Origin: Balanoglossus misakiensis
Lineage: Eukaryota > Animalia > Hemichordata
Length of the DNA stretch: 64,000 nucleotides
Direction: 5' to 3'
NCBI GenBank assembly: GCA_040954595.2
Contig: CM082577.2
Location: 13,151,903 to 13,215,902 of the forward strand
Part shown: piece after piece, positions 4,379 to 62,822 of the stretch
Numbering within the stretch: position 1 is the stretch's first letter
How the letters are laid out: the number at the start of each line of letters is the position of its first letter
Made by a program: the position numbers and the translations under genes
The notes under the pieces: model-generated
Databases searched by the model: none
What the model was told of the DNA's origin: nothing
What the model saw: only the letters and a program-made list of their open reading frames with translations

Positions 4379-4432
4379 ACACCAGAGAGCCGGACCAAAG
4401 GGACAAAGGTGGTGAAAGGGGATGGTGGCGGG

Positions 4433-6357: not shown

Positions 6358-6365
6358 AGCTTCGT

Positions 6366-9384: not shown

Positions 9385-9438
9385 AATGCGTTGCGTTGAA
9401 GGGTTGAATAAAGTTGAGGTGAACGAGAAAAAGAAAAA

Positions 9439-11450: not shown

Positions 11451-14400
11451 CTGAAAACAAGGAAGAAAATAATTTGTTTTACAGTAATTAATAAGGTTGA
11501 GTACATGTTAGAGTTCAAATAAATATTCATTTGTGGCACTGGAATGCATCAAAATATCCAAAGATCACATGTAAAATCATTCTGTCAGTCAATGAAGTCA
11601 ACACCATTGCAAATTTGTTTTTCTTCATAGTGTGGTTGAAGGATAATATAACATATTACCGGTATATCGAAAAGTTTATCCACTCAAAAACTATTGACAC
11701 TCAAAACGTTTTGATATTTAAAAATATCTCTTAATTTACCTCCAAATGGTCATCTATTTTAACCCCAGCTTTCACAAGGCCATCTACCATTACTTCATCA
11801 TGTTCTTTCACAGCCCAAAATAGTTGCTCAATGTTCGAGGAACTAGGCTACAATGGTAAATTTGATATAAAATGATTATTTTTCTAAATTTAAAATCTTT
11901 AGCGAAATATGAAAGTGTAATCAACTTAACACTCAGTAGTTGTCTGGTGCTGTTTGCATTATTTAGTAAATGGCACTGTCCTGTTGAATAAACGATATGT
12001 GCATACTATCATACATAAAAAAAATATTTCATACTATCATAAATAAAAAAAATATTTATGTGGACTGTCTTCTAAATACAACAAACTATTTCATCGGAAT
12101 GGTTGTAATACACTGCTATCACTGTTAGCAGAGGTTTTGTCTGTTTAATCTTCTAAAAGTGAACCTTCCGTGGGCCATCTGTTTTTAAATTATCACAAGG
12201 GATTTCTGCCGGTCGAACTTGTGCACCTCAAACATATTTCTATACTGCCTGCAGTTAAACATTATTAATGTTTTCTATAAACAAGAGCTGGATGCAAGTT
12301 TATAGGTGTTCTTTGAAGGTGGTCAAAATGTTAACTGACCCACCCCCTGAGAACACTAACAAAGCAATATAAATACACCTAAATCGTGAATTATAATATC
12401 CATATTGAACAACTGTCATTGCTAAATTTTCATTCCTGTGAATAACCAAATGTGTTTGCTCAAAAATATCAAAATGTTAACGGATTCTTATGGTATCCCC
12501 AAAAGCTCAATAGCACTCAGACTGCTGTTTCAGATATTTGCTACATATATGCATTATTTGATCAAATCTAATGTGAGTGACACCTAGAACATCAAATTCA
12601 AAGCAATTGATCCAGCAGTTTCTAAGAGATTTTTTCCATCAAAAAGAACAATCACTTTGGCCTTTGGCTCAGAAGCATTAGACTACTTTTTCAGATTTTT
12701 GCTTTATATGTAATATTTACCATAGTTTAATGGGAGCGACACCTAGAAACTTCATACCAAATTCATAGCAATCAGACCAGCAGTTTCTGAGAGCTTTTTC
12801 CTTTGAAAAGTGCAATGCTTTTGCCTAAATATTACAATCAAAATGTAATGAGAATAAACAAATCCAAGGAAAGTAACCCTTGGGAAATCTAAGACCAAAG
12901 CCATACAATTAGAAATGAGGAGGAGAAATTGATTGTTGATGGACAAGGAATGCAGGATAAGTGAGAAACACTCACTGACAATCGCCATTTCTTATAATCT
13001 CTGCTTCGGTCACAACAGAGCAAAAATATCTTACCACATTTTTATGTAGACAAGCATTTGCATTGAGCAGTTGTCGAGTAGACTTGATGTCCCGAAATTT
13101 GAGAGCACAATAGAGTGGTGTATGGCCATCCTTTAAAAAGTACAAAGAAATGTTCATTTATACTTTATTTGAACTTTATAAAATATATCTGAGAATAACC
13201 CAGATTTTATGGTGTCATTGTCATCACGAAATCTTTAATTCTCAAAATTTTCACTGAAGCAAGTATTAACGGAGTCTTTAGAAAAGAAAACCAGGTCAAA
13301 ATGTTGTACCACCCACCTTATTGTCTATATTGAGGTCAACTTTGTTGGCTATTAATGCCTTTACAACAAGACTGTGTTTTTTCTTTACGGCATGATGCAG
13401 AGCTGTATTACAAGCCTAGGAAAATTGAATATATACAATAAATAAACATTCATTCATAGCTACAGTGTAGACAATTTATTTATAATCTAAACACACAGTC
13501 AATGCCGAGGTCAGAGAATAACCAATGACCACAAACTATTGTTATTAAAAGATTTAGTTGAATATATAACTGTCCACTTCGCAAGAATATCAAAATATGG
13601 TGAGACTTAATTCAAATTATAAATTAAATTTAAAAAACATGAAAATGAAATAAATATTCCCAATTCTGAAAAATTGAAATGGAACATTATGGTAACTAAT
13701 GGAACATTATGGTAACTATCTGTAATTGTAGGTTTTGGCTTTACATTGATGAAACATACCATGTCTGTTTGGTTTTTATTTGACCCAGCTTGTAACAGAA
13801 CATCCACTGCCTTGGGAAAATTGTTGGCTGCAACTTCGTGAAGTACACTCATACCAGCCTGTCAACATGAATGGAAGTTGTGATCTGTGACATAACACTT
13901 GTTAACAATGAGTATTTTTGCTTGTTGGCAAAGCTCGGGTTTATAATCAAATTAAACAAAATATTTAGCTGTTTTAACATTATGCAATATGAACAAACTG
14001 AATGCAATATTCTGGCAGATAATATTTAAGCAGTATATAAAATCCAAGGTAATTTACAGAGAACAACAGATTGCTGTTGGTGGCACTGTTGTTATTAATG
14101 TGCAAAAATATCATTCAACATAGCTAATATTTTTTGTTATGATATACCTCATGCTAATACTGTGCCGTGATTCGCCAGAATCCGTCACGTGATAGGAAAA
14201 TAGAATCGACTATGAACCGCTAGGGAAATAGCAGAAAAAATATAAACCGGTCACGTGACCAACGTAGTCACATCAATCAGCGTCGTGTCGTCTGACACAT
14301 GGCCACCGCTGAAGATGTCATCTGCCAGCCTCAAGAGAAAATTGCAAGATTTTCCCAGCTGTTAGCATGAGGTTTATTATAAAACACCTATAGCCTGGCC

Positions 14401-17400
14401 TATATTCGGGCCATAGCAGCCATTTTACCCCCTCATGACTGTGCGGCCTCGGGAAATACAGTGAAACCTGGCAAAACCGACCTCACCTCGGACCACACAT
14501 TCTGGTCGGTTTTCACAGTGGGTCGGTTTACTCAGAGTGGGCGTGGCTTCCCCCAAACCCATGACCCCTTTGACCCCGATCTCATACACACAGTGCACAG
14601 CAGACACACGCACGATATACACGTTTGTACACTCGTATTTCATGTTTTTTTTTTCAAATAAAAGGTAATTAAACAACTTCTGTACAGTGTAATTTCTGAA
14701 AATTGTTGAAAATAAAAAAAAAGTAAATTCAAGTTCGTTCGCGGGCTGAGTGGGTAAACAGGAAGACGTACACGGTATTGTTACGATCGCATCGGCAGAA
14801 TGTTGGGCAATTGATTTCCTGGAAACTACTGATAAGTTGTCGTAAACAACATCCAGTCTATTTTTTCTTCATAAAACTTTCTGAGAGATGATTGTTTTAG
14901 GGAACATGGCTTCTGCAGTACTGTTTGATAAATCGCCGCCCTTGTCAACACTGCGTGGCCGCACTGTTGGTTGTACACTGTATTGTTTACAAAGAGATTC
15001 ACACCTCGCCACGGGAAGGTTTATCAGTAAATTGCTAACGAAGTGTTGACAAACCGTCCTTTGACTATTGTTCGGAAGACAGGAAAACCAAAATTAGCAC
15101 ATCGTTGCAGTAATTTTTGATCAAAGACATGATTTCAACCTTTACAATAAAGTGATCGGTCGGTCTATTCAGGTTGAATTTGAGGGGTGGGACCGACCAA
15201 CGCGGTCGGTGTTCGAAGTAGACAGTGGTCGGTATTCAGAGTGACTTTTACCATTGGCGTCAATGGGAAATTTTCGGGACTAAACGGATCGGTCGATTTT
15301 CACAGGAAGTCGGTTTACCCAGGGGTCGGTTTTGCCAGGTTTTACTGTAGCATATGATTCTGGTAACTAACAGCCCCTCGGGTGTAATAAACGGCCGCTA
15401 TGGCCCTCATGGCCAGGCAATAGGTGTTCATTATTAATCACTTACCATAAAACTATGCAGAAGTTTCTTAAGTTAAAAGACTTCAAAATTTTATGAGTCA
15501 CTTCCAGTGTGAATTCATATGCTACTTAAATGATAAATGAAACACTATGTGTATGAATGACTTACCTGATTTGTATCATTTACATCAACACCCATATCTG
15601 TTAATGCTTTAACAAAATCTAAGTGCGGATACTTTGCAGCTGCAACACACATAGGTCTACATTCCACAGGAAACTGTATATCCTATGATAAGTAAAAACA
15701 GAAGATGGACATTTTAAAGACATGTAACAATGTCTCATTCTTCAATTATTATTTCTTTTTTTCAAATCTTATCGCTGTATTAATTGTGATTTGAAATGTA
15801 TCTCCACCACCAATACTTACCCCTTCCTTGATAAAGTTTGCTTTTGCATTGAGAAGAACTTCCACTATCCTCGCATTCTTTTTTTGAACAGCATAGTACA
15901 AAGGAGTACACTGGTTCTGTAGACAAAGCAGCATTGTTGTAAACATACTTGTATTATTTAACACAATGACATAGAAATCCCAATTTCCGAAAAACAAGGT
16001 TTTTTGAGATTTTTTTGACAAAATATCTAAAAATCCTTAATAAATTACATTGATTCTTGTATATTATCAACCAAAAATTAAAAAGCTAAAAAAAATAACT
16101 TTAAACTGACTATTTTCTTAATTTTATTCTAGAATCAGGAAAACACTGGAATTTGTGTCTTTGGTTAATACTTATGCACTTTTCCATTGAAAAATCAATT
16201 TCAAAATTTCCCTTTGACTACCATGGATTTTTTTCAAAGGAATTTCGTAATTTATGTTTGGGCTGACATTGATAATGAGTATTTCCGTGCAAACATCCGA
16301 TTTTATCTTCGTTTTCGGAAATTGGGATTTCTATGTCGTTGTGTTTATTTATGAAAATAAAGGGTTTAGTATGTTATAACCTGAAAGTACTTTTTGAAAA
16401 TTGGAAAGGTTGCTATGTACTTGTGTACCGGTACCATGTGGGACAAACTCTAACTCATCAATTGCGACCAATATCTATAGTGAGATCAAAATACGAAAAT
16501 ACATACTTTCGCACATTTATTCAAGTGGGTGGATAGAAAGGTACAGTTACCTTGTCTAAGGCGTTGATGTTTGCCTGAAGTGATAGGCATAGTTCCACAT
16601 ATTTAGAATCCTCCTTTTGGACCATGAGATGGAGAACTGTTAAATCACTAGGTACGTCCTAATGAAATAAAGCAAAACATGTATGCAGGGTTATGACAGA
16701 TTTTGATATTTTGTAAGTTACCCCATCACGATTCTTGGAATATTTTGTAGGCAAAATAATTTGCGCCAATGATTTATGTCAACTTGAGCTGTGTAAAATT
16801 CTACTAGCCGCATGTCTAACACGGTGTCTATGGGAGTCACAAAGATACAACACAGTTCGGGTGTGGAAGCCCATGGAGTTGTATGGGCCCGGTTATAGAA
16901 AGAGGCGCTTAGAGGCACATTTACATTAAACTGTTATGATGAAGACAAACTGTTATTAAAATGGATATTGTGCCCAACGTTTTCGTACAAGAATGTCCAA
17001 AACACAGTGATCATGTTTTGTATCTATGATCAAATTCTTTTACAGCTGAACAAATGGCATAGCAGCTGATACAGCCCTGCTGTGATACATAAAATTATAA
17101 ATACAGATAACTGTTTGAGAATGAAAAGATGCACACATCTCTAGACTTAGACAAGCTTGTCAGCAAATCTGCAATGCCGTAAACACACAGTGCAAATTTG
17201 TCACAATTTTAACAGGTAACTTCAGACAAAACTACTGGACACATGCACAAACACATAGAGCAAATTAGTCACAATTTTAACTGGTAACTTCAGACCAAAC
17301 TACTGGACACATGCACTTTTGAAGATGGTTTTGAAGACTATTTTACTAAAAAATATCCCCCCAAAATCTATTATTCAAATTTCACCAAATTATGCACAAA

Positions 17401-26400: not shown

Positions 26401-29400
26401 ACATAATTTTAGCTATATGTTAATAAACAATATTCCCTTGTACAAAATTATGTATAATACACATTTAAATAGGAAAAATTACTCTTAGAATCATTTACTC
26501 ACTCCATCTTCTTGGTGAACATCAGCGTTTAGTTTCAAACATAGGCGCACCGCATCTGGGTTTTCCTTCTTTGAAAACACATGCAAAACTGTTGAGTCCT
26601 TGGGGTATTCCTGGAACAAACCCAGAAAATTACTAACTGTAATATTCACTGGATTTCTAAGGCAGACGACAGATTGAGGGAAAGAAAAATATAAAAAGAA
26701 GGCATGATCCCACGGCCGGCTGGTAAGATTCCAAAAGGCAACTTGGTGGCTGATACGGCTTCACTGTGGATACGGCTTCACTGTGATAGTTGACAGTATA
26801 CATGAGAGCCTATCTGCCCAATTCAAAACATTCGAACATGAAATGAACAATTGTAAAAAAAAAATATTGTAATTACGATTTTTTATTCTTGTAATTACGA
26901 GATTAAAAAGTCGTAATTACGAGATTTTTATTTTTATTTTTATATTTTAAACTTGTAATTACGTGTTTTTAATCTCGTAATTACGAGTTTGAAATCTGTC
27001 CTATCACAATTGAAAATCTCTGAAATGATTTGTTGCAACTAAAGAAAAATAATGAATATGAATGTAACAGTAATAGTAATTATTTCGAGTGAACCATCCT
27101 GGCATTTGTACCACAAAAACTCCTGGAAAATTGCTGGAAATCTCCTGGAATTTGGAACTGCTCTAGGTGTATGAACCCTGTAACTAGGCATATGCAGCGT
27201 ACAGTTCTGAAAGACAGGGTGAGACACACCGCGTATTGTGATCTATCATGTTTATTTCCATACAAGTGACGACTGGGGCGAAAATACTAGTGGATGTAAA
27301 CGCCCAGTGTTTTTTGACAGAAGTGTATCAAGAGAAGTGTTGCCCACTGGTGATTGATTTATCCTACCAAATGATTATGAACAGTGCTGTGCATTTGTCC
27401 ATGCATGCATTCCTATATTATCATGTTGTTTGCGCATTGATGGTTGAATAAAAAAAAGCAAATAAAAAAGGAAAACAAAAACAAATAACGCGCGACCGCT
27501 ACATTTTTGCAAGATGCCTTTAAAAAATAAAAATCTCATAATTACAAGTTTTTAATCTTGTGAGTACGAGATTTTTTTTTTTTTTTTTTACAAATTGGCC
27601 TCAATAAGCTTCCATATATACCATACACCTGTCTCATGGGTCTCTTGCCCGTTATGAGAGGGTATTGCCCTCGTCGTTCACTGGCTATTGCATTCACCAT
27701 GGCATCAGTCAGCACTCGCATCTATGGCTTAAAAGCGACACACTGACTGATATTAGGGACTGGTCAGTTTCTTCAGCAGCAGTAGATTCTATTTTGTGGG
27801 TATCAAAAAGTGGATGACCCCCTCATTGAACATTGAAAAGTGGGTGAACCAGCATGCCAACTTTCAAAACTTTACTGAATGAATAACAGTGACAATTTGC
27901 ATATATGCATAAATTTAAATAACTAAAATAATACATAAATAAACTAAAAATACAAGTCATCATGATAGTTGGCAGACATTTAGTAAATTAAGAGAAGTGA
28001 AGCGGGTGGGTGTGGAAATTAGACAATTTTGTAATATAGAGAGCTCGAAACTGCATTTTTATGGACTCAAATGCAAATTTAGTCCCTCATTCAGCATTTC
28101 CAAAACAAGGTGACCACCATCAACTAATTCCATAACAGATTGACCACCCCCCCCCCCTCCCCATATAATCCATCCCCCATCCCCCGGCTGATGAAACTGA
28201 CCAGTCCCTTAACACCTATTCAGTTGCACGAAATTGTTCTGCAAATGGACAGTATATAGTAAGCACCATCCATTGTACATCTTTTCAGTCAGACAATATT
28301 TTACTACAAAAGGACAGTACAGTTGCAACAAGCGCAGTATAAATTCTCCACAATTTTATCTGAGTTCGAAGTAGGCCTATAGCTAAAATTATTGTAAGGT
28401 CATCTTCACAATAGATACGTTCTATGCTGAGTGCATATTCATTGTTCGGTGTTATAAAAATTGATAACACACAGTGCTCTGGCAACAAAGTTTACTTTAA
28501 AAAGGTATAACTGTCATGCTAAATAAATAATGGGGTTTTAATTTCAATGTCTGAACTGTATAATTTTCGCAGAGGAGAATCTAAGTTTTTTTAAGTTAAT
28601 TTATGCCCAAACACCAATTAGCATAAATTTGAGATTGAATGCTCAGAATAACTAACCGAAAAAAATCGGCAGATGCACACTCCGTCTAAAATACAGAGAA
28701 ACATGACATTGCTGACATTTGCACCTAGAGGAGGATATTTTAAAGAAAATTTGGCATTTTAAATGAATACCATCCAACCTCATACTACCTTAAATAAAAC
28801 ATGTGCACCGCGTTAACCCTATCAGTGGAGTTGAAAAAATAACAACGATATCCAAGTTTGTGCTATACATTTTTTTTACAAGAGAGGATGTTGACATGAC
28901 GGGAAAGCTCCATTAAAACTTAAGACCTCACTTCCTCACTAAGTTATCAAGGGATTAATCATATTCCAACATTTGAAGGGATTAAAAAGAAAATGGAAAG
29001 TAAGCCTCGCACATGCACCAAACACCAAGCACAAGGAAGTGAGAAATAACAAAATAATAACAAAACTAAACATACCACAGGTAATCTTGCATATTAAGTG
29101 ACCAAAATTGACAATAGCCAACTCAGGTACCAAGTGAAGTAGTTTTAATGGAGGCTTCCCGTAATGTATAAAATATTTAAGCAATAAAACACCCCCAGCC
29201 ATGGTATATCACGAGATTTTGACCAGTTCACGACATATACGCACGAGCGATAGCGAGTGCGTATATGGAGTTGAACCGGTCAAAATCGAGTGGTATACCA
29301 TGGCTGGGGGTGTTTTATTGCTATTATATTATGCCAGTATATTGAAACTTTGCATAAAACATTTTAAAAAGGCATTTTCTTTAACTATGATATATGACTG

Positions 29401-32400
29401 TGGTATATGGCTAATATATCACGGTCACGTGTCGTGTCTCGACCAATCAAATAGCGTGATTTACACCATCAATATACTGGTATAATATAATATAACTTAC
29501 ATCTTTGTGGATTTTGGCATTTATTAGGTTGTCATCTGCTGCAGCCAGAGTCTCGGCAACATTGCTTTGTTCATTTGAAATAGCCCAGTGCATTGACGTT
29601 TCCTGTGAAATCATATATAAAACATAGCATCAAGGACACTGCGGTCCCATTTGGTGATTACATAGAAAAAGTCATACACATGAATAAAATTAACAGGTGA
29701 CATTGACAAGCAGATATGACTTTGCCATATATAAATATGGAAATGTGGAAAGAAATTAAGAAGGAACATATCCAATCAAGTGTCATGTGTCATCTTAGAA
29801 GCAGTGCTAGAGAAATTGATTTTTGACCAAAAATTGCCTGTACAAACACATATGACAACTTCTTTTAGTCAGCCCCTGGGACAGACGGGGACACTCGCTG
29901 ACCTGGCACCGGCACTTAATAATAGAATAGCTGGTGTCTCTGTAACAATTGGCCTATTAAACCTATGTAAACATGAAGTGTACAGTTACAGTAGGGGGGG
30001 GGGGGTGTTAAACTCATTGTAAAGAATAACGTTCAAACCAACTGGCAATTGGCTTAGGAGATTTGTTGACAGAACTGATTTATTAAATTGCAAAAAACAA
30101 CAACCCAAAACACTGTATCATGAATTTCAAAGCAATCAGAGAAAAATGGTTTAATATCAAAACAGGAAAGATTGCTTCAAGAACACAAATTTCACCAGTT
30201 TATATTACCTTAATTAAGTTACCCGTAGGAATATTCCTACCAAATTCCTACACAATCAGACAAGCAGTTCCAGAGTGGCCAAAACAAAAATATGCAAATG
30301 TGTACAATAACTTACAATCACCACCAGGAACATGCCTACCAAAGTTCAAAGCAATCTGACAAATGGTTTCAAAGGAAATAATTTTTGATGTAAATTTCAC
30401 CAATTTTTTTACAACATTTTGCTTGGGTCACATCAGGGAACACTCCTATTACATTTCGAAGCAATCTGACAAGCACTTTTAGAGAAAACAATTTTTCAAC
30501 AAAAATGGCAAAAACTGCTCCAAAATTATAATTATGCAAATTTTGCATCACTTTGAACAGAATTACAGTAACTTAGATTACCTATTAGAAGCTTTATACT
30601 AAATTTCAAAGAAATAGGCCGATCACTTTTAGAGAAGAAGATTTTATACGATAATGTAGAAAATGACAAAAACATTTAACAAAATATAAAATTCGTGATA
30701 TTAGCTTAAACATACAAGGTTGACAAACGGTACACACTTACCAATTATCAAAGCAATTTGTCTAGTAGTTGTTGAGTTTCTGAGTTTTGACTAAATTTCC
30801 ATTGTTCCAGCTAATTTGCATATTTTTGGCAATGACAACTTTATTTGAACACAATAATATCTACAAACCGGCATGCATGTGCACACTAAATATCAAGCTG
30901 ATACGTCCACTGGTTTCCAAGTTTATGATCATCCCATCCATCCATCCATCAAATCCCATCCCATCCAATCCATTCATTCATCCATACAGTGTTCTCTATC
31001 TGTATTACTCATTTTTAAATTTTTTAATGATGGTAAGAGTAGAGTAATAGTCATTTAACACAGAATTTTAACGATCTTTACCTTCTGGTCTTTCATAAGG
31101 ACTGAGGCTCTACTCCTCAGAAGACACTTAGCAACGTCTTCATTGCTTTTCTCGGCTGCATAATACAGGGCGGTGTATCCATCCTGAATTGAAACGGATG
31201 TTTTGCGGCACATTTATTCCACTCTATGAAATGGACTGTTATTGTAGCCAAATCTCCTTTCTCAACTACCTATTAATTTACTATATCACTTAAAACAGTT
31301 AAACTTAAATAGTTGATGCACCATTCCGAAAGAGAATTATCGCAGACAACAGGTAGAATGAGTTACAAATGACCTATAAGTGCATTACAGAGTCAGTATG
31401 TCCATTATCGTTAAGATGGGGTTTGAATGATGCATTGCCTTTTTACAATTCGACCAGTTCATGTTACAATTTGCAAATAGTAACTCCGAAGGACGTTAAA
31501 TACAATCTTATTGGAGTCCTATACTGGAAAAAGCATTAGTTAATGCAGCTTCCGTAACAGTATGAAAAACGAAGCCTTTTACCTTTGAATATTCTGAAAC
31601 ATCTGCTCCATTTGTCAACAGAAACTCCACGGCCTGTAAATTCCCAGACTCTGAGAACGTGTGTAATAATGTCCGACCATCCTTTTAAGGGTAAATAAAT
31701 TATGTAGTTTACATAACTCAAATTTAAAAGCATAATATCTTGTTCATCGTGTACAAGTTGTGTCAAATGTCATTATGTTTTATTTTATTTAAGGTAGGAA
31801 AAGTGTAAATGTATCTGAATGCAGATTAATTGTCAAAATGAATGAGGAAAAGCATACGCGCTTACCACCATAACTGCATTTACATCAACTGCTTTTGCCA
31901 AGGAAGTAGCTGCCTTGTTGTACTTCTGCCATCCTTGATCAAGTATCCAAGATAACTGGGATGTTGGCATTCCATCTCCCTTCAATATCAATCGACAATA
32001 TTAAGTTTTGTATAAAACAGTGGTTACTTTAGGAAGAATGCCATCCATGCACAAGTGACTGATAAGCAGCTGTCTTTTATACTTGTACGCTTGTCTTAAT
32101 TCAAGAGTAGTGGTAAAAATGAATTCCAAAATACTATGGTCTTGATTGCGAAGTGCCATATTTTCCGTCTTGATACAAAACAGCCCACATTTCTAAATTT
32201 TAATAGCTTGCTAAAATTGTATACCACACAAAGCACCTCGTTTGGCTTGGAAGTTGTGTTCTAACTACATTGAATACAACACTCTAGAGGAGGAGAATAA
32301 GATGAAGAACATAGAACAGACATTGAACAAGAATTAATTTACATGCAAATGGTTGATGTTGTCCAATGCGGTCTTATAATAATGACTACAGTGCAGCTTA

Positions 32401-41400: not shown

Positions 41401-44400
41401 TTGCATATATAAAAATGGTTGCATTTCGTACCATTAAATATGCAACCTGTAAAGGGTAATGAATTGTTTGATGTCATAAAGAAACGCAAGGTTAGTAGCA
41501 GGCATACCTCTATAGTAAAAAATACCCACTTTGCATATTTTTGTTGTGCTCAGACAATGCGATACAAAATACCAATGGCAAGTGAAACTCTTTATTACCA
41601 GATTTGAAGAGTAAGTTCTTTCAGGCAATTATTGAGAATGTAAAGTTCATATTGATCGGATGTGCTCTGTCGACTAACATACATGTATATATAGGCTGCA
41701 TTCACAAACACCTCTGAAGGGGGGGGCAGGAGAATTGAGGGGGGGGATTTGAAAAAATTGAGGGTATGTGAGGGGGGGGATTTGAAATAATTTAGGGACT
41801 GAAAGGGGGGGACTTGAAAACTTTAACGACTAAATATTTATTTTGAGTCCACAAAAATGCAGTTTCGCGCCCTTTATTTTACAAAATTTTCTAATGTGGG
41901 AGGGGGACACCCCCTCCCACACCCACCCCCTCCATTCATCAACACCTTTCAATCATTGAATGGTTTATCTAGTGTCCCAGGTCAGGGGACTTGCCCCACC
42001 CCATGATAACTTTGAGCGCCGACGGTTAAATTTGTCCTCCCCAACATACCTGTAGTTGAGTTAATTTGCTTTTGCCGGGTTCATTAAAATGCAGCTTTGA
42101 GCTCTGTATTTTAGAAAATTTTCTTACGTGGGAGGGGGACACCCCCTTCAATTCTTGGTTTACAAAGTCTCCAAACACAGAATACAAATATATGTACTTA
42201 AAAAATAAAAACAATGTTCAGTTTTAATACCCACTGATGAGGGGAAACATCAGTTTCAAATTCTTTTCATGGGAGCGCTGTTTTTCTTTTTACAAGATAG
42301 ATAGGTGATGTGTTTTGCTCTGTGAAAGACAATGGGGGGGGGATTTCAAAATTTTGGCAGTTCGGAAGGGGGGGATTTGAAAATATTGGCAGTTCGGAAG
42401 GGGGGCATGTGAAAATTAGCGGTAAAAAAAATTGAATTCTCCCGCCCCCCCCCCCCCCCCCCCCTCCAGAGGTGTTTGTGAATGCAGCCATAATTATATA
42501 TAATCTCCCAGTATTTCGAACGAGTATTACGTCAGCAAGAGAAGAGTGATTCCCCCATAACGGCTGTATCCCTCCGAGAGGCGAAGAGGGGATACAGCTT
42601 TGGGGGAATCACGAGTCCCTCGCTGACATAATACGAGTGAGAAATACTGGGAGATTATGTATTTATTATATTCATAGACCCGGGGCAGTCTTAATATTTT
42701 GCAATAAAATTGATTTAAATGGTTTCGGAAGGGTTTGAATTATTTCAAGCTGCGCATGGATATAGTGAAAATGGTGAAGAGGCTCAGCTCAGCTGATTCA
42801 GCTCATTCATAAATTTTGTGTGAGACGGGACATACGTGCAAGTCGAATTAATATTTGTCAACTAGTTTTAAAATGCCTTGTTTCACAACAAATTCAACAG
42901 TCACGAAATCAAACAGTCAACATCTCAATCCTGTGAACTATCGCTAGTATCGTCGATTACGGCTCGACGTTTACACGGTCGCGATCGCGGCGCTGGCTGA
43001 CTCGCGGTCCAAGCAACATTGGTGGCTGCCCGTTGATCGTACACTCGGTCATGGTGGCCCCAGAAAACATTCCCGCAGCTGCAGCCTCTACGATACCTCC
43101 GTCCGATGATGTAGGCTGGAAGGGAGAAGCTGCGACAGACGTGAGTTGGTGTGGATGACTGAGCTCGGTAAGGCAAAAGAGCGTGCTGTTGATCCCACGC
43201 TGGTATGTGAGCGTGTCCGGCTCGTAGCCAGACCCGTCGCGCGCTCTGCCTCGAGACGCGATGAAGAATTTCGACAGGTAGACGTCCAGAATTTCAGGCG
43301 GAATTTCATGTAGACCTGTCACTGAACCATCTTCTGTCAACTCTAGAAATTCCCTAAGTTGTTTCACCGCGTTTGTGGTCGACTTTTACAATGTTCTGCT
43401 TTCTTTGGCTCTTTAGAAAATCATCAATGTCGTTCGACGACATAGCTATCATATGTGCCGCTCTGTCGCTGACATATTTGATCGAGCAAAAATTTTGAAG
43501 CGCAGACGACAGTCGTCAAACTTTCCCCGCCACAGTTTTAATACATCGAGCAAACTAATAAAACATCATTAAACGATACTTCACATGTGCTTTATTATTT
43601 GTAACCCCATTTTTCCCAAACTTCAAAATAACATCGTAGGATAGTATTTTTATTTGTTTACAAACTGAATAGGTTCCGGCAGAATTATTGGCAGTGACGT
43701 CGTACTACAGTAATATGCAATCTGTCGATTTCTTATTACTATAGTGTGACGTCACACTCTGGTAATAACCGGGTCTATGAATATAATAATGCATAAAATA
43801 TTTTTTTCCTGAAACACGTTTACAATTTTGTAATTAGACGTCGCATGCAAGTTATGCTATGCCCGCGTATTTACCTTTAACTAAAATTGTACAATTGTGC
43901 GTGTATGCATAAACGTACACATTTTTATATTCCTATAGCCTAACATGAACAAAAATGTAGTGTACACTATATATGGTACTTAACATGTAAGATTAACTTC
44001 ATCTTACCTTGTCAAATAAGTTCACATCGAAGTAATACTTTTCTAGAAGGAGTTTTACACACTCACTGTTGCCATCTTTTGCAAATTGGTGCAGTACAGT
44101 CAATCCATTCTGCTCGGAAAATAAACACCAGAGAAAAGAATCAGAATTTGTTCACAGCTAATCATGCAAATACAAATAAATAGTATCCTTGAATTTTTAT
44201 GATTTCATTGAATGGGTTGGAGTTGAAATGGGGTTATACGATGTTGTATAGGGGTTCACAGTTTACAAGACAGGTCAAGGAAGGGGGGGGGGGTTAAGTA
44301 ACTAGTTTTCATTTCAAACCCGTCATAAAGTGCGTCATCTTACCACAAACAAGTACATCTGTAAAGACAACACTACTGTATATATATGACGGCTAATGGA

Positions 44401-47400
44401 ATCCTCGACTGTTCATAACATTTCTCCCAAAAGTAACAGCTTCTGTACAAATAGAAACTCAGTTGTGTATCTCCTCTCACATCCGGTAAACTACTATCCT
44501 ATCACAGACAGAATTCCCCCTGTGTAATAATGACAGTTCGAACACTCCAACATAATGCTCTTCAAATACCACCAGTCAGTGATAATGACATTCCTTCGCG
44601 CAGATATCCGTTGCCTGTGAGCCAGAATTTGTGAATATGTAAGTCTTTAAGACACGAACCTCCATTGTGTCTTTGACGTTTTTCTTGGAGCCTCGAGCTG
44701 CGGTTGCCTTAAGGTTGTCTGCAATGATGGTCTTCTTTTTCGACAAAGCCCAGTGAAACTGTGCTGGAAATGATGTATCTTGCTAGAAAAAAGTTTGTTG
44801 TCAAAGAAATGTCAGTGAATGCGGGAGTAAATGAAGCAACGCACTGTTTTATACATTTTACGCGCTCATCACGTTATCAACATTTTGGGAAATTTCATGA
44901 TATTTTTCAGAATGTACTAATTTTAGGCCACATAGATGTATGCTTTGATGTACATAAAAAATGTTATAACATTTAAGTATAGTGCAGGAGCTAAACCCCA
45001 AATTTTGGCATAATTGTGCACTTTGGGTTAAAAGCATGAAACTTGGTACAGTTATGCATTGACCCATGGCGGACATTTTCTGGTATGGATCCCAAAATAC
45101 AGCGGCCTCTAGTGGCCAGAAACTGACATTCATACATCAAAATTGTGCACTTCCGGTTAAAAGCATGAAATTTGGTACAATTATTCATTGACCCATGGCG
45201 GACATTTTCCAATATGGATCCCAAAATACAGCGGCCTCTAGTGGCCAGAAACTGACATTTACACTTTTCCCCCATTAATGGCACTTTTTGGTCAATTGTA
45301 ACACTCAGAAACAGGAATATGGGTTGTAAAACATGCTAGCTGCCATATATTCTTTTGAATATTATCCTAATCCTGATGTACATGTACCAGATCAATCTAG
45401 TATTTTACTAATTGAACAATTTGTTCTTCTGTATAACAGAACCAGTTGAATACACAAAGTCATGCAAAGGGGTAAGACAACACATCTTCTCCAGAAAGTC
45501 AAGGGTTCTCGAGAATATTCCTTCTTCACATGTAGCTCTTAAAGAACATGTGCTATGAGAAACCTAGCAAAGCTATATCAAACCAACAGAATCCCAGTGG
45601 AAATCAAAGTGGACAACTCTTAGTCAAGCCCAAGAAAAGAGTCAACCTCAAGAAATAAGTTGCAAAAAGTCATGCACATGTTTCTGTAGGTGCTTTAGGT
45701 CTAGTCTGACAGCAGTGCTCTTTGTTACTGTGAAGAAAGATGTCATCAAGATTGATCTGATACATGTACATCAGAATTAGGATAATATACAGAGGAATGT
45801 ATGGTAGCAAGCATGTTTTACAACCCACATTCCTGTGTTTGAGTGTTAAACTTGATCAAAAAGTTCCATCAATGGGGGAAAAGTGTAAATGTCAGTTTCT
45901 GACCACTAGAGGGCGCTGTATTTTGGGATCCATATTGGAAAATGTCCGCCATGGGTCAATGAATAATTGTACCAAATTTCATGCTTTTAACCCGAAGTGC
46001 ACGATTTTAAAGTATGAATGTCTGTTTCTGGCCAATAGAGGGCGCTGTAATTTTGGATCCATATCAGAAAATGGCCGCCATCGGTCAATGCATAAGTGTA
46101 CCAAGTTTCATGCTTTTAACACAAAGTGCACGATTTTTTGGTTAACTGCCCCACTATTAGGCCATTTTGTCATAAATAAGTGTTTACTTCTCAGGCAATA
46201 TAATTTAATAGACAGAATTGAAAGCTTATCCGAGATTTTTCATCGAGTTGCAGCTCACGTAGCTTTAATAATCACAGTGACATGATGTCAAGTGAAGATC
46301 CACATGCGCGTGCCTATAATATTGATTCCTGAGATTAAACGACTACCTGATGGGCAGAAATGCATACGTTTGTTAAAAAAGTTTTATACACTATGAAATC
46401 ATTTTAAAAGTAAGTATTGTAACAAACTAAACATTCGTAGCTTACCACATTTTGGGCAATCTTTGCCTTTTTCTCAAGAAGAAATAAGGCAGCCGCACTT
46501 TTGTTCTTCTCAACTGCCAAATAAAGGGGCGTTCTATCACCCTGGTGAATAAATAGATATATCGGTCCTAAAACGGCCCAATACACTTAATTTCGCATTG
46601 CTTCTGCCTACCCTATTAGACATCTGGATAGAGATTTCAATGCGTGTGTTTAGCGATACTGCGCTGATAAAATGACAGCGCATTTGAGCTGTTGTTTGCT
46701 GCCAAAGGTGGAAGTGAGAAGTCCATAATATACGTATTATTTATTTCATAAAATATAAAATAATCTCTGCATGTATATGGACGTTCCCTTGTACGCTGAA
46801 TAGCAAAATTCTATCCATGCAGGCCACACATTAAAGCAATAACAATTAAAAGTCAATAAAATACCTTATCAACAGGGTTTATATCCGCTTTGTTGTCGAC
46901 CAATAGCTTTATCATTTCGGTTGTTCCGAATTGGCTTGCAAGGTGCAGTGGGGTTTTATCATCCTTCACAACATGAAATTTAGACATAAAATTAAAACTA
47001 ATAAAATTTACCCTCAGTAAACAATGCACTCTCATTGACGTAGAAAAGTGTCAGTAACTGCTGGGTTGAAAAAGGAGTATAATCAAGTCTGTCATTCGTG
47101 TTCAACAAACAGCACTGCTGTATTTTGACATATTATTCCATTATTCCAACCGAAACGCATCATTGGTCCTAAAATATCACAAACACATGCACTTAGAACA
47201 ATACATAACCGAATGCATGATGTTACAAACATCTTCCACAAAGATTACTGCAGGAGCTAGGTGCCGTTAATCAGAATTTTTGGTAAGGAAGGTTTGAGAA
47301 GTCCATTCTATGTAAAACATGGTGCTGATTCCAAAAATGTCAGTCTTATTGACCCCACTCAAGACAAAATTGCCATTTTGGCCAATTTTAACCCAAAAAT

Positions 47401-49562
47401 GGTCTTTTTTAGAAAACACTAAAAACACAATGTTTTCGTCACATTCTGAGATCTGATGACATATGATATGCTTATTCTATGTAAAATTTTGTGAATATTA
47501 CGAGAAAAGTAGTTCGATTGACCCAAAACAACAGAAAATTGCCTTTTTGACCATGTTTTGCCCAAAAAACGTCATTTTTAGAAAAAAATTTAAAACACAC
47601 GGTTTTCTTCATAATGATTGATCTGGTGATATATGGAAAGTCAATTCTATGTTAAAAGTGGTGACTTTAAAAAATAAAGCAGTCTTTTTGACCTAAATCA
47701 ATACAAAAATGCCATTTTTGGCCACTTTTTGAGGTCAAAAAAGGTCATTTTTACAAAAAAAAACTAAAAATAAATTGTGTTTTTCATATTCAGAGATCAT
47801 TGGATATATGAAATGTCCATTCTATGTAAAAAAAAAAACGGTTCTGATTCCAGAAATAGCAGTCTTATTGACCCTACTCAAGAAAAATTGCCAATTTTGC
47901 AACTTTTTGCCCAAAAACGTCATTTTTAGAAAACACTCAAAATTTATATATTTTCTTCACTTTCGGAGATCTGATAATGTATTATATGCCCACTATATGT
48001 GAAAAATTTCCAAAAAAGCAGTTTTATTGATGCCACTCAAGATAAAAGTGCCTTTTGGCAAGTTTTTGCCCAAAAAGTGTCATTTCTAGAAAACACCCAA
48101 AACGTTTATATTTTCTTCACTTTCGGAGATGATGATGTATTATATACCCACTCTATGTGAAAAAATTCAAAAAAAAAAATTTACTGGCGCCACTCAAGAA
48201 AACAGTGCTTTCTTGACAAGTTTTTGCCCAAAAAGCCACTTTTCGAAAATCATTTTAAACAAACTGTTTGATTCTTATTTGGAGATTCTATGATGTGTGA
48301 AAAGTACATTTATTGTAAAATAGGTGTTGTTTCCAGAAATGCAGTCTTAATGGCCTCAACCATGATGAAATCACCTTTTTGGCTAAGTTTTGCACAAAAT
48401 TGTTATTTTTAAGAATATATTAATAGCATTCTCTTTTCTTCACTTTCGGTGATCTTATTATAAATAAAAGCCCATTCTATATTGAAACGTGGTTACTGTT
48501 CCAAACACGGAAGTCTTACTTACCCTATTAAATTGAGATTTGTAATTTCGGCCACTTTTTTGGTCAAAAATGTTCATTAAAAACAAACAAACTAAAGACA
48601 AATTGTTTTCTTCATATTCAGAGATCAGATCATGTATGAAAAGTCCATTCTGTGTAAAATTTGGTGACTATTCCAAAAACGGCAGTCTGGTTGGCCCCAC
48701 TCTAGTCAAAATTGCCTTTTTGGCTATTTGTAGCCAAAAATAGATCTACTCAAGAAAAATTTATCCTTTTAGCCATTTTGTACCGAAAAAATGTTTGTAT
48801 TTGGAGTTTTTGCAAAATTAGCCCAAGTTGAACTCATGATGATGATGAAACAGCATCGAGAGGAAAAGAAGTTACGAATTGAACAAAACTCGCGTCGATG
48901 AATGTAAACACGCCGCCCGGGACCAAGCTCTAATATAATACAGATGACAAAAGAAAGGCATTGCACATTGCCCAAATATTCCCATACAGCAGTTCCAAAT
49001 TAAAACGTCAAGGATTTTATGTTTATTTGGTTTAAGCCCACATTTTCCCTGCTGCGTGCTAGTTCAGGGGCCAGTTTTAGCAGTGCTCTATTGAGTATTC
49101 TGGCATCGTTCAATTGGGTTGCACTCCTGTCCAATCAGTATGACGGAGGTATCATGATATAAATTATAATATAATTTCTGATTTTGTATTCAGATTGAAG
49201 AGAATAAATTTCAACAATCTCTCCCGAGCTGGCATATCTGAACCTAAATATTTCACACCACGCATAATCGACTTATAGTAGACAGTGCGTATACATGGAT
49301 CATCTTATTGTTGAGTTCAGTTTTGGGCTAAATGTGCCAAATTGTGGCAACCCTGTCTTTCAATACCATCAATTTAATTGATATTTTATGCTTATGGCGT
49401 TTTAAATATGCATATACAACATCAGAACACAAAAGGCAAAAACATCAATTATATTTGTTTTCTGAAAATGCCTATTGTTGACCAAAAGATGGCTAAATGG
49501 CAATTTTGTACTGAGCGGGGTGTCTCAATAAGACCGTTGTGCTGGTATCAGCATATTTTTTG

Positions 49563-49593
<31 letters not shown>

Positions 49594-55500: not shown

Positions 55501-58500
55501 TCGTCTGACATGTCCATGCCAGGTGTGTTTACACCTGTGTGGGGTAAAGCTGTGATGTGTTCCGGCATGGACAGCAGCATTCCAAAGTAACATGCCAACA
55601 TGTTTATTAGTATATATAACGAAGTTTTGTCAAAGACTTTCAAGCATGTCAAACATCTATTCAATGTCTTCAACTGAAAATGTAGTCCTCAGAAAGGTTT
55701 CTTTTCAAATTTGCATCAAAACTTGCTCGAGTTTTGTAAGTCTTCTGTGATTATACGGCTTTGTTTCTCGTTGTCCAAAATGGCCCAGGTGAGCTAGCAA
55801 AAATGCACTATAGAACATGAACAATTTATCCAATATGCATATACATGTAATCATGTATACACATTTGGAGGACAAATAAGTTTTCCTAAGCGATTGTATA
55901 ACACATTGATCTTTATGTAGTATTAATGTATAAATAACTATAATGTCAAGGATGGCTCAAAGGAAGGTTATGATTACTTTTTGGTAATGTACTTGTTGTA
56001 TAACGGATTTACCTTATCCGGAATGTTACAGTCAGCTTTGCGATCTAATAAATATTTCACTGTTTCTGTCTGGTTTTCGCAATGACATGCTGTTAGCAAC
56101 GGGGTACTACCATCCTGCAATTTAAATGAGAAGAAATAAGTTCATGTATCACATCTCATTCTAAAAAAACTAGGGTCAAAAGTATACATTACTGTATAGT
56201 ATTATTACTGTCGCGTGCGCTGATATTGCCCGCTTGGTTGTTTTGGTTTTCTGCGCACGACCTCTGCGCGTTCCAAACTGTCGTTCAATGGCTTCCTCCA
56301 CGATCAGTCAACTCCCGCATCTATGGCTTCAAAGCGACACATAGGATTAACACCTGTTCAACTGGACGATATTTTACCGCAAACGGACAGTAAATACAAC
56401 AAAATCGCAACCAACAGTGCAGTATTTTCAAAATAATCTAAGTTCGAAGTAGGTATCGTATAATTCTTGTGAGATCGAGACATTTTACATTCTCAGCAAC
56501 ATACGACATATGGACGCGCGTCTACGTTCTTCTATGCCTGCCTTGTATGTACGTTCAAATGTTCGGCGTAATAAAATTAATAACACATGATGCTCGGGCA
56601 ACATCACGATTTGAAGCCTGCCCTCGGGCTGGTGATCTCTGACCACAATATTGATGATACCCTCGCCTGCGGCTCGGGCATCATCAATATTATAGTCAGA
56701 GATCACCATCCCTCGTGCAGGCTTCAAATCGTGATATTGCCCTCGCTATCATGTGTTATTATTTAATGGAAGTTCGCTGCAAGAACTGCTGGCAGAGAGC
56801 TCGATGGTGTAAATCAGAGCCTAATGGTAGATGTAGAAGGGAACTAGGGCTGTTTGACATACAGTAGGCGGTGTATGACTGGTCATTTTCGTGTAAGCAA
56901 GACCTACATGTGTCAGATAATGATGCCTATAGTGGGTACAAGTGTCGCTTTTGTTTCTATGTACAATGTAAGCAATGTAAAATAACACATTTCAAGTGTA
57001 AAAATATCGACAATCGACGATATGTTTTACCTGTGTACATCTTTTTCGAACCACCACTGCATCAAAACTGTCACGTTATCATTAGTGCTGAGCCAATGTT
57101 GTCACGTATGTAAATCTCACAGCGCTATTTTTTTTATCAAACTGAAGCGGCGAGCTTTTTATAATATGCGACAAAGGTAGAACCACAACCGTGAGCTCTA
57201 CCCTACAATTTCACACAAAATTTCTTATTTATGATCATAAGATACATTATAATTCATGTAGTCAAAACAGCCATAAACAGAAATCTCAATGTACTAAACG
57301 AAAGTAAACGAACTTTTGGGTTATCGCAAATCCATTTTTTTTTCTAAATTGCGTCCTTGTCATGTATCTTTTCACATCAGTTTTTAGTTTTTAGTTTTGC
57401 ATTTTTAAGGGATGTGTAAATGCTGAAATAGCGATGATAACACTAGCTTCCCCTTTCAATAACGCCATCACAGCACTGATTCATCAGAAAAAATCGGAGA
57501 TAATTATACCAAACTAACAATTGCGACTGTCAAATTATAAGTTATTATGAGTATATGTACCTCATCTTGAACATTCGGATTTGCACCATTATCCAGTAAG
57601 AGTTTAACCGTTTCTGGTCCTCTAGCAGTAATGGCAAGATGCACTGGAGTTCTCTTATCCTAAAAATGATTAGATATGAGTATAAAACATTGAAATGCAT
57701 AAAATATAAAGACAGTTACCACTGTTATAAAACATATTTTAATTCCTGCGTACTCTAAACGGACGGATACTTTCTCAAAGACCGAATCAACTCCATGGTT
57801 CCATATATTCTTGTGTATGGGAGTCCATATGATGACTATCATTTTTTGCAATATAAAGAGATGTGTAAATGCTGAAATAGCGATGATAACACTAGCTTCC
57901 CCTTTCAATAACGCCATCACAGCACTGATTCAGAAAAAATCGGAGATAATTATACCAAACTAGCAATTGCGACTGTCAAATTATAAGTTATTATGAGTAT
58001 ATATACCTCATCCTGAACATTCGGATCTGCAGCACTATCCGGTAAGAGATTAACCGTTTCTGGTCCTCTAGCGGTAATGGCAAGATGCGCTGGAGTTCTC
58101 TCATCCTGAAAAATGAGTGTATTATTACATATATTGTATTGAATTTATTGAATGTGAGCAACAATAAAATATAGCATGATAACACTAGCCTCTCCTTTCA
58201 ACAAACATTGCAGCACTTTTAAAGATACATTCCGTGTATACTTTTGCTCAGATGTTTACATAGGCGATAGTAAATTATGTTATTCTATGAGTATATCTAC
58301 CTTATCCTGAACATTCGGATCTGCACCTTTATTCAATAAGAGTTTATCTGTTTCTGTTCCTCCGGCAGTTATGGCAAGATGCAGAGGAGTTTTTTTATCC
58401 TAAAAATGATTACATATGAGTATTGAATGGGAGCAACAATAAAACATTGCAATGCATAAAATAAAGGAAATTACCGTTGCTATACAAACATATTTTAAAC

Positions 58501-60609: not shown

Positions 60610-62822
60610 TAGACCCACAGATGTTCTGAAACCAAGCCAATCGGGGTAAATACGTCGAGATTTCTGAGTTTCTACCAGACAACCTCCTACCAAACTCAAT
60701 CAAATCCGTCAGTACTCGCATTGCTCTGGACCCGGACAACCCCTTCGTTGCAACAGTCGAGTCACAACCGAACCGCAAGTCCATCCACACACTGGGTATC
60801 TGGCTTGCTACCTTTGGAACATTCGCCGCCTCCGGGCTTACTACTTCCCCCACGAAGCCGTCCACCTGATTAACTACATGCGTCTTATAGGTAAGCGTTG
60901 CTGTTTCACGACAAAGCATTCAGGCAAAACATGGCCAGATACCCGGATCTACAAAGTTGGAGCAACCCCAGCCCTTCACTTGATTACACATTCTTCCAGC
61001 AAAACCCGTATCTACTCCTACAATTATGGTACGGATGTAATAAAAGAGGCCACACCAAACCTGACTGCCCATCATTGCCAGCACGGTCCAATACAAGCAT
61101 AGCAAGTCAAGATTCTTACCAAGGCGCTCCCCAGAACCACCTCCGAATATGCAAAGACTAAAAACGTGGCTTCTGTAAATCACCATGTCCCGGACGCCGC
61201 ATCCACATCTGCAGCACATGCTATGCCAACGACCACATCCCCACCTTCCGTAATTCTCAACAGCGGCAGCCCCGTCAGCCCTTTCGTCCAAGCGGACCCA
61301 AGCAATCCACACCACAGCCCTTGCGACCACCAAGTCAAGACCCCGGACATAATCAAAACAACATTCCCAGCAACACCCCTCAAATCTGAATGGCCCGAGC
61401 AGCACAGCCAGAGGAAAGAACCATCCATCGCATGGAAACTACTCTTCCCCATCTACCTGGCATGCATAATTTGGGGCCATCGTTGGCAAGGCAGACGCAT
61501 CATGTTTCATGTTGACAATCAAACCGTCGTTGATATCTGGAAGGAAGGGTCATCACGCTGCCCCCTCATCATGGAAATCGTCCGCGGGATGTTTTTCACC
61601 TTGGCCAGGGGCAATTTCCACATTATGGTCACCGACATTGCAGGCACTAAGGGACCGTTCAGTTTTTACGGCCGGGGGCGGCAAGTTTGTGTCATCGGTC
61701 TTCAAAATCAGGCCGACCCCCTCCACCCAGGACCAAAAAATGATGACCCCCCCCCCCTTTGACAGACCCAAAAATATGATGAACCCCCCACGCCGAAAAC
61801 ATCCGCCGTCCTGATCCTATGTACACTGTATGCAATAAAGGCAATGAGGCTCCTCACACCTCAATTAAAATTTCTTAAAGTATTATTGAAGTATATAATA
61901 GTATATCGTTGCATTAAAGAAATCTATGAACAAATTAAAATGACAAGTCAATACAATAGTTGCTAAAACTGGTATTTCACAAGAAAAGTGGCGGGGGTGG
62001 GCGTGATATCCCCCTCCCACATAAGAAAATTTTGTAAAATACGGCGCTCAAAGTTGCATTTTAATGAACTCCAAAGCAAATAAACTCAATGTTAGGGAGG
62101 ACAAATTTTAATTTTGCCACTCCACTCTAAGTAAGCATCTGCCCTGGTACACTAGACTAACCAGCGAATAAATGCAATGTGGCGAATAATGAAGGGGGTG
62201 GGTGTGGGAGGGGGTGTCCCCTTCCCACATAAGAAAATTGTGTAAAATATGTAGCGCAAAGTTTCATTTTAATGAACTCCAAAGCAAATTATCTCAATGT
62301 TTTGGAGGACCAATTTTATTTTTTGCCACTCCACTAAAAGTTAGAAGATTTGGCGTCATCTTCGTCACGACATCATTTATAAAACTTCTAGTATATAGAA
62401 GATGCAGCGCGAACCTATCAGTTATGCGAAATGCTTTAAACGATTATTCTCTTTTATGTATTTAGTTTGTTAAATGTTATCATCGGTGGGGTTGGGGTGG
62501 CAAGCACTCTGCCGTGGTACACTAGACAAACAGCAAATTATGAATGAAGGGGGTGGGTGTGGGAGGGGGTGTCCCCCTCTCACATTAGAAAATTTTGCAA
62601 AATAAAGGGCGCGAAACTGCTATTTTGTGGACTAAAAAGCAAAAGTTCGGTGGAAAAAGTATGTGACACCCCCCTAAACGTTTAAAAAAACAGATGACCC
62701 CCCCCCCCTTTTGGACTTCAAAATTTAAGTGACCCCCCCCCCCCTGGATTCCCCCCCCCCCTGGCCGTAAAAACTGAACGGTCCCTAAGTACACCATTGC
62801 TGATTCTTTGTCCCGTTTGCAG
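60610..62822 (+). pseudogene. Decayed second-family Ngaro/DIRS retrotransposon (gag plus RNase H, RT deleted), interrupted by a MITE
   Basis: gag-like GKYVEISEFLPDNL, DKAFRQ, CNKRGHTKPDC; RNase H SIAWKLLFPIYLACIIWG...FHVDNQTVV; resumes after the MITE as YTIADSLSRLQ (62790-62822). Confidence 0.85.
61651..62785. mobile_element. PIF/Harbinger-like MITE, 1135 bp
   Basis: TIR GGGACCGTTCAGTTTTTACGGCC; TAA target duplication; removing it restores the RNase H frame (AGTK|YTIADSLSR). Confidence 0.92.

Follow-up and report, generated by a model that had tools for sequence, protein, structure and literature searches.

We analyzed a 64,000-nucleotide (nt) stretch of the genome of the hemichordate Balanoglossus misakiensis (GenBank assembly GCA_040954595.2, contig CM082577.2, positions 13,151,903 to 13,215,902 of the forward strand), referred to below as the window, which is AT rich and full of repeats. 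Our subject is the element at positions 42494 to 43789, which carries the remnant of a Crypton-type tyrosine recombinase gene and ends in a long hairpin where GA repeatedly lies opposite GA (GA/GA) (Table 1). In contigs of one sequencing sample, other copies show loose ends at 42490/42494 and 43786/43789, and contig depth in this sample was several hundred or more inside the element and about 50 to 90 in the right flank. Additional loose ends at 43185/43186 (runs X1 and X2) are where longer copies continue. One contig of run X2 connects 41690 to 43786, which would fit an allele without the element and without an adjoining miniature inverted-repeat transposable element (MITE). There was no target duplication, with at most an apparent 4-bp AT-rich repeat flanking the element. 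We conclude that this is a real, interspersed, multicopy element of CryptonA type, internally deleted and dead, with ends at about 42494 and 43789. A 1,278-nt contig relative (runs X1 to X3, over 42516 to 43580) has the same ends at both sides, and 80 different letters replace most of its hairpin and gene.

Table 1. Features of the CryptonA-type element and of three gene-less elements in the window
Feature	Position	Strand	Details
Internally deleted CryptonA-type element	42494..43789	gene on minus	Evidence: loose ends, depth, remnant matches
Terminal long hairpin, ~165 nt	42494..42662	GA/GA on +	+ is the strand with the hairpin 5'
Two tandem GA steps, clean GA/GA	42518..42523	+	Pyrimidine-GA-purine context; partners 42635-42640 (42518-19 x 42639-40; 42522-23 x 42635-36)
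Third GA/GA site	42544..42545 x 42613-42614	+	Outer neighbor pair decayed/mismatched in this copy
Apical GA...GA relic	42576..42584	+	42576-77 x 42583-84
Inner 21-bp inverted repeat	42663..42683		Directly abuts hairpin
Tyrosine recombinase remnant	42925..43449	minus	Frameshifted N-terminal part, 43449-43179; C-terminal tail, 43085-42925; lacks the catalytic core (deletion near 43185)
Small imperfect palindrome, two TGACGTC motifs	43694..43755		Upstream of gene
Outer 21-bp inverted repeat	43769..43789		Element start (TTAT on gene strand)
Gene-less element, same layout	14137..15428	GA on minus	Inverted-repeat body 14137-14382; hairpin 14383-15428
Gene-less element	29172..29492	GA on +	Hairpin 29172-29330, apex GCGATAGC; inverted-repeat body to 29492
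Gene-less element	56202..56764	GA on minus	Inverted-repeat body weak, ~7 bp; hairpin 56575-56764, GCA apex

The two inverted repeats (IRs) of the element are identical at 21 of 21 positions and asymmetric in placement, so that they are not true terminal inverted repeats (TIRs). An earlier reading of the letters without database searches (the sequence-only reading) had placed a Crypton-related recombinase remnant between them, and the searches bear this out. The minus-strand frame 42957 to 43385 matches one longer protein, P0001 (423 amino acids; E = 8.8e-13), at 59% over 59 amino acids plus the C-terminal tail of P0001. The remnant keeps P0001 residues 2 to 58 and the tail (374 to 391, with the final RRAVI..DTSDSSQD in another frame); everything between, catalytic residues included, is lost. 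P0001 itself contains DUF3504, phage integrase, and QRICH1 domains, with PF12012 at 68.6 bits (cutoff, 29.7). The profile check of the remnant for DUF3504, which the sequence-only reading had proposed, gave no Pfam match, because the DUF3504 part is deleted.

P0001 has 202 relatives, the best named ones being "KIAA1958-like" proteins of the acorn worms Ptychodera flava and Glandiceps talaboti. Residues R139, K172, H264, R267, H290, and Y299 are conserved in 58 to 61 of 61 aligned relatives (61 proteins aligned out of 120 listed), and the catalytic R-H-R-Y set, intact in autonomous relatives, is deleted in the 42494-43789 copy. The predicted fold of P0001 (mean predicted local distance difference test score [pLDDT], 79.8) has QRICH1 and Cre as its closest matches, the C-terminal tail being a low-confidence coil. 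Neither reverse transcriptase nor GCR1_C was found in a six-frame reading of 42494 to 43789, where the deleted part is not visible, or in the Pfam scan of P0001. Judged by sequence, the element is of the CryptonA type, a known group. Related loci were searched for in viral contigs and prokaryote genomes, and none were found. The palindrome upstream of the gene is, from its motifs, a possible promoter element.

The terminal hairpin has arms at 42496 to 42557 and 42601 to 42662 that are 82% complementary. It adjoins the inner IR, as had been proposed from the letters; its proposed start at 42498 has to be moved, the end lying at 42494 to 42496. Two of its GA/GA sites are clean, and the third has a mismatched outer neighbor in this copy. 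The recombinase remnant is on the minus strand, and the GA (plus) strand is therefore antisense to the gene, as originally noted. Variants in other copies restore stem pairs (for example, 42628 A>G). The apical loop was apparently shortened in this copy, as contigs of other copies have 42585 A>G and five extra letters. We rejected a tandem-repeat origin of the hairpin, since no tandem repeat was found there.

Three further elements in the window, at 14137, 29172, and 56202, share the layout of a body bounded by IRs joined to a hairpin, and blastn found no arm similarity among them and the 42494-43789 element, in agreement with the sequence-only reading. That reading had also given each of them two or three GA/GA sites; the layout stood, and the clean sites came down to two (29172 to 29330), two (56579 to 56760), and one (14383 to 15428), plus looser sites. 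The IR of the 56202 body, at no more than about 7 bp, was missed by blastn, and the hairpin of the 14137 element is split by an 889-bp insertion (14459 to 15347). This insertion has CAGT...ACTG ends and a TA duplication, and we take it to be Tc1/mariner-pogo-like. A decayed relative of the 56202 element lies at 27660 to 28490; it retains the body and the beginning of the inner arm, has lost the hairpin, and contains another insertion. By their layout, the three gene-less elements may be linked to Cryptons.

We counted a 2x2 internal loop as clean when at least two matched pairs lay on each side, and we turned all hairpins to lie 5' of the body. All seven clean 2x2 loops in the four window hairpins are GA/GA, and all 14 half-sites read pyrimidine-GA-purine (Y-GA-R), a context that favors sheared pairs. 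In all four elements, the strand carrying GA is the one whose 5' end bears the hairpin, as had been claimed. A window-wide scan found eight hairpins, namely, those at 29168, 42490, and 56575 plus five stems of low complexity or tandem sequence with neither GA/GA nor TC/TC, so no counterexamples had been skipped.

Next to recombinase genes of other animals, the same pattern recurs. We took the best 80 of 311 loci encoding recombinase relatives, counted the stems lying no farther from the gene match than 1 kb downstream or 600 bp upstream (n = 37), and turned them hairpin-first relative to the gene body. The 37 stems contain 76 clean 2x2 loops: 40 GA/GA, 10 TC/TC, and 26 others. By stem, 18 have GA only, 3 have TC only, 1 has both, and 15 have neither. 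By eye, seven of the 37 stems had been judged beforehand not to be element-end hairpins; since none of them contains a 2x2 loop, the totals are unaffected. Y-GA-R was the context of 74 of 80 GA half-sites. Simulated decay of perfect stems gave 0.35% GA/GA, and for ordinary long-spacer inverted repeats, the loops that were GA/GA or TC/TC numbered 4 of 111 (window) and 5 of 47 (loci). Fisher tests gave P values of 6e-9 and 8e-10; these are too strong, since neither the copies nor the overlapping alignments are independent. Stems with GA sites belong to five families whose hairpin sequences are unrelated to one another (17, 6, 4, 1, and 1 stems), and GA is the majority polarity in 5 of 5. Together with the four window elements, GA polarity holds in 9 of 9 (P = 0.004 by a sign test, four of the nine having been picked by the sequence-only reading).

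The proposed check of GA/GA enrichment and polarity thus came out positive within the fetched loci, and the hairpins are tied to IR bodies as predicted, sitting against them and beside intact recombinase genes in the five other families. GA/GA enrichment and polarity, the IR-hairpin association, and the Crypton relatedness of the remnant had been named beforehand as the points on which the idea could fail, and within the sequences covered it failed on none of them.

In four families and in the 42494-43789 element, the hairpin lies 3' of the gene and GA is antisense. Family E is built differently: its gene runs in the opposite direction between the IRs, with the hairpin upstream of it; the sense strand carries GA and still has the hairpin 5', and the mirror IR is at the far end. 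GA polarity is therefore set by the anatomy of the end and not by gene direction, as family E has a reversed gene yet keeps the hairpin at the 5' end of the GA strand. The same observation rules out transcription-linked polarity.

On the GA strand, apices that are intact form GCA or GTA triloops or read GATA, and several match the DNA mini-hairpins GCGNAGC/GCGNNAGC. According to the accessible parts of the respective reports, these mini-hairpins are closed by sheared G.A pairs, the RNA form r(GCGAAAGC) melts at 39°C versus 76.5°C for GCGAAAGC (PMC13037366), and tandem GA shows strong sheared stacking (PMC8163305). Family A apices (L016, L023, L062, and others) carry a ladder of three GA/GA steps, two base pairs apart, under a GNA triloop, and this ladder is at the same time a 10-bp direct repeat. 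Between the GA sites of the family A stem, 18 of 43 pairs are changed on both sides with pairing kept, and the GA site stays unpaired (11 of 17 stems aligned). Such covariation alone is not proof of selection, because template switching can homogenize arms without selection. Mismatches have been erased in L026 and L063; template switching would be expected to erase them, yet the families keep them.

The stem extends from the inner IR, without a gap, to the end of the element, and for this reason the junction between the IR and the stem mirrors the joined element ends. Reverse complementarity between this inner junction and the joined ends covers 44 of 47 columns with the end at 42496 and 42 of 45 with the end at 42494, and the mirror is likewise present in families A and E and in the other window elements. 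An IR, a 5-nt spacer, and a paired box occur in 24 of 27 elements examined, with box anchors at the junction set by the analyst. The spacer, or center, has at least one mismatch in 22 of 24 and is followed by two outer bases, "AT" in 18 of 24. Judging from the observed boundaries, we tentatively assign these two extra bases to the element, which would make the center asymmetric. Inner IRs end in ATAA in 20 of 24, which is partly by construction and was not used as evidence. Seven family A starts read TTATT, and their flanks are unrelated except for a final T in six. Stems span 105 to 190 nt across elements, and the inner IR of the 42494-43789 element is about 170 bp from the element end.

We searched the literature for Crypton and Eulor hairpins, palindromes, and single-stranded routes without finding this end design described; the search did not extend to Repbase Reports or Dfam notes, which may mention hairpins, or to Goodwin 2003 and most subscription journals. 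Dfam reportedly describes Eulor repeats as hairpin shaped. In the accessible part of a human-repeat review, Eulor5 and Eulor6 are classed as nonautonomous Cryptons by terminal similarity, with no occurrence of "hairpin" and no GA/GA pattern or mechanism (PMC5753468). The accessible text of Kojima and Jurka (2011), whose set includes CryptonA-1 to -3_SK of an acorn worm, reports no terminal repeats in animal Cryptons, has "n.d." in all CryptonA rows, and has no occurrence of "hairpin" (PMC3212892). In the available portion of a 2026 review, the transposition mechanism of Cryptons is undemonstrated and a double-stranded DNA (dsDNA) circle is assumed (PMC13565253). No Crypton hairpin is given in the available portions of the 2026 Glomhopper paper (PMC13465315), the human-repeat review (PMC5753468), the Repbase paper, or the curation guide. 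The elements studied here resemble published CryptonA, as far as described in the part available, in the DUF3504-type tyrosine recombinase with R-H-R-Y, the animal host, the size of about 1.3 to 2.3 kb, the nonautonomous derivatives, and the absence of target duplication; they differ in the asymmetric IR, the terminal hairpin, and the strand-polar GA/GA (PMC3212892).

A close parallel in plan is attC of integrons (PMC5027507, consulted in its accessible sections, as are the papers cited next). Both have an R box, an unpaired 5- to 6-nt spacer, and an L box, with a hairpin at one end that is completed by joining the ends, and in both, one strand is distinguished by unpaired features and a tyrosine recombinase is involved; the bottom-strand fold and replicative resolution are those of attC. 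attC uses extrahelical bases (G/T), a conserved AAC, and IntI, whereas the elements here have tandem GA/GA, a TTAT start, and their own Cre-like recombinase. The attC mechanism is proven, whereas the one considered here is proposed from sequence. The 42494-43789 end is thus not an attC and, by analogy, may work like one. attP of CTXphi with XerCD offers a folded structure of about 150 nt, two inverted sites, one strand exchange, and replicative resolution, as would apply here, but CTXphi is a single-stranded DNA (ssDNA) phage that uses host recombinases and cannot excise, whereas here the fold must form from chromosomal DNA (PMC5357621). DIRS elements are tyrosine-recombinase elements with an internal region complementary to both ends, as here; they are retrotransposons with reverse transcriptase, whereas here there is none and the splint is fused to the terminal hairpin (PMC6681497, PMC13465315). 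IS200/IS605 and Helitron2 share strand-specific terminal hairpins and a lack of target duplication, and Helitron2 also has an asymmetric IR plus hairpin; they rely on HUH enzymes and short hairpins, in contrast to the tyrosine recombinase and long stem found here (PMC13565253, PMC3627910). We rejected a DIRS/Ngaro identity for the 42494-43789 element, which has no reverse transcriptase-RNase H, and a Helitron2/Helentron identity, given its tyrosine-recombinase remnant and the distance of the inner IR from the end.

We consider it reasonably probable that the end layout of IR, short spacer, and long GA/GA hairpin lets one strand fold into a site cut by the recombinase, in the manner of attC. 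The strand with the hairpin 5' would fold when exposed, probably at a replication fork, with sheared G.A pairs and the GNA apex stabilizing the GA strand and the other strand receiving TC/TC. The inner junction would then splint both element ends side by side, forming a two-box recombinase site with a mismatched center of 5 to 7 nt. Recombinase from a full-length copy would exchange that one strand and release a folded ssDNA circle, which would integrate into an AT-rich target by one strand exchange and be resolved by replication, without target duplication, as for integron attC and CTXphi attP. The sequence-only reading had left the role of the folded strand open between origin, primer, and recombination site; of these, the anatomy favors the last, the IR-spacer-stem junction being a mirror of the joined ends.

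Several observations weigh against this interpretation. Five out-of-sample families do not suffice for a sign test by itself, and copies of the same family are not independent of each other. A clean site is kept in only 15 of 37 loci with at least 800 bp downstream; among the other 22, 5 have the family hairpin with decayed sites, 6 have it broken, displaced, or deleted, 4, all of one family, lie on contigs that stop before, or within 50 bases after, the inner IR, and 7 have no clear hairpin. ViennaRNA DNA energies favor the GA strand in 21 of 30 stems, mostly by small differences, and give -52.1 kcal/mol for the GA strand and -54.5 kcal/mol for the TC strand of the 42494-43789 hairpin; we regard nearest-neighbor folding energy as uninformative as a strand test. 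The skew of G.T over A.C on the GA strand is weak (24 versus 15 in the loci and 6 versus 4 in the window). The spacing of GA sites differs between families, which rules out a conserved spacing acting as a protein ruler. The central bubble amounts to one mismatch in the 42494-43789 copy and to none in the 14137 element. No end-to-start (circle) joint was present among four joints listed, which come from contigs of one sample and cannot show absence, and the element encodes no helper that would expose ssDNA. The 14137, 29172, and 56202 elements gave 0 tblastn matches with 120 proteins, leaving them without a coding remnant. An integron integrase is only the rank 32 fold match to the P0001 prediction (TMq, 0.31), so on the modeled structure the integron likeness of the recombinase is analogy and not kinship.

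TC/TC occurs in 4 of the 37 stems (L007, L013, L018, and L054:4458), which also counts against a strict strand rule. In three of them (L007:4496-4639, L013:1089-1224, and L018:2093-2262), the interior of the hairpin has the opposite orientation to that in relatives. Template switching, whether in vivo or during library preparation, seems likelier than plain assembly ambiguity, because only 7 to 12 bp of perfect stem adjoin the inverted part in L007 and L013. The fourth, L054:4458-4582, is the hairpin end of a neighboring element joined head-to-tail to the start of a recombinase-bearing element, like cassettes in an array. Another element without a gene lies at L054:3693-4050; it has a GCA apex and two GA/GA sites, its downstream IR was recognized by eye, and its polarity obeys the rule.

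Other explanations of the end have to be weighed against folded-strand recombination. It is unlikely, in our estimate, that the strand folds while its GA stem serves replication or protection (as a priming site, by excluding ssDNA-binding protein [SSB], or by nuclease resistance), with the recombinase using ordinary duplex ends. This would suit GA sites that lie 20 to 50 bp from the junction at variable spacing, and the accessible parts of two reports describe GNA mini-hairpins at phage ssDNA priming sites that bind SSB poorly (PMC13037366) and GCA loops that give Streptomyces telomeres nuclease resistance (PMC7205883). It leaves unexplained why the IR abuts the stem so as to mirror the joined ends with a mismatched center, and such a role is compatible with folded-strand recombination as a second one. 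We regard duplex recombination as decidedly unlikely. Here a dsDNA circle would be excised, the inner mirror would be a second inverted site for resolution or amplification, and the mismatches would only make the palindrome tolerable. Flp/2-micron-like amplification is a parallel for an inverted second recombinase site. The Cre-like fold of the recombinase suits this explanation, as does the gene of family E, inverted between IRs as two-site inversion would produce. The dsDNA circle is also the standing model in the consulted parts of the Crypton literature (PMC13565253, PMC3212892). Bacterial strand-biased tyrosine-recombinase elements for which ssDNA circles had been proposed gave nicked dsDNA circles, according to the available part of that study (PMC10214605), a point that also tells against folded-strand recombination. 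Any mismatch would break a palindrome, however, and this explanation accounts neither for the GNA apices, nor for the Y-GA-R context of GA/GA, nor for the constancy of the strand.

Two further explanations bear on what the hairpin is made of and which enzyme reads it. Tandem G.A pairs form in RNA also, and the stem would be long enough for Dicer-type processing, so the hairpin might act as RNA (antisense, a self-silencing precursor, or an mRNA 3' structure). This is very improbable: GA is antisense in four families and the 42494-43789 element but sense in family E, the apices are DNA-type triloops and not GNRA, the six Rfam matches are subthreshold (microRNA) and at chance level for a hairpin, and the mirror of the joined ends stays unexplained. 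That the gene-less elements are of Helitron2/Helentron type, their folded ends served by an HUH transposase and not by a Crypton recombinase, seems to us highly unlikely. The 14137, 29172, and 56202 elements have no coding remnant, and in the accessible part of the Helitron2 report, asymmetric TIRs (ATIRs) adjoin the terminal hairpin (PMC3627910). The same report gives ATIRs of 8 to 15 bp, with the inner one lying 20 to 30 bp from the end, and another hairpin at the 5' side (PMC3627910), whereas the stems here are 105 to 190 nt, and in five families their layout is found alongside tyrosine-recombinase genes.

The surroundings of the element are themselves rich in mobile DNA. Directly beside the Crypton hairpin end lies a very-high-copy MITE (41694 to 42489; 23-bp TIRs; ATA duplication; contig depth up to 1e5 or more), presumably PIF/Harbinger-like. 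At about 4200 to 9700, the window holds an apparently intact Ngaro/DIRS-type tyrosine-recombinase retrotransposon with repeated sequence at both ends, gag-like open reading frames (ORFs) upstream, and ORFs for recombinase (5371 to 6462) and reverse transcriptase (6366 to 7973); an RNase-H-like fragment from a relative of it lies at 61103 to 61762. A near-exact duplication with a period of 1,603 bp covers about 300 to 2500 (ORFs 336 to 656 and 1939 to 2259; stems 745 to 903 and 2348 to 2506). Large foldback-like elements at 45012 to 46135 and 47305 to 50537 have long, internally repeated inverted arms (129-bp and ~160-bp units).

Taken further, folded-strand recombination has roughly an even chance of making CryptonA a eukaryotic counterpart of integron cassettes, with a Cre-like recombinase that recognizes structure and not sequence, a folded strand selected by G.A pairs and GNA loops, a self-splinted ssDNA circle, and insertion by one exchange. 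If true, this would be a eukaryotic ssDNA route of tyrosine-recombinase transposition, and the folded-ssDNA recombination of integrons and CTXphi would operate in animal genomes too. One enzyme could then move many unrelated gene-less families, and a sequence-independent signature would become available to classify abundant unclassified hairpin repeats. It would also bear on the origin of the domesticated DUF3504 genes ZMYM, QRICH1, and KCTD1. The layout helps the annotation of gene-less repeats, and since the end anatomy specifies the strand, the substrate, the likely cut position, and mutations, the mechanism of Cryptons becomes directly testable.

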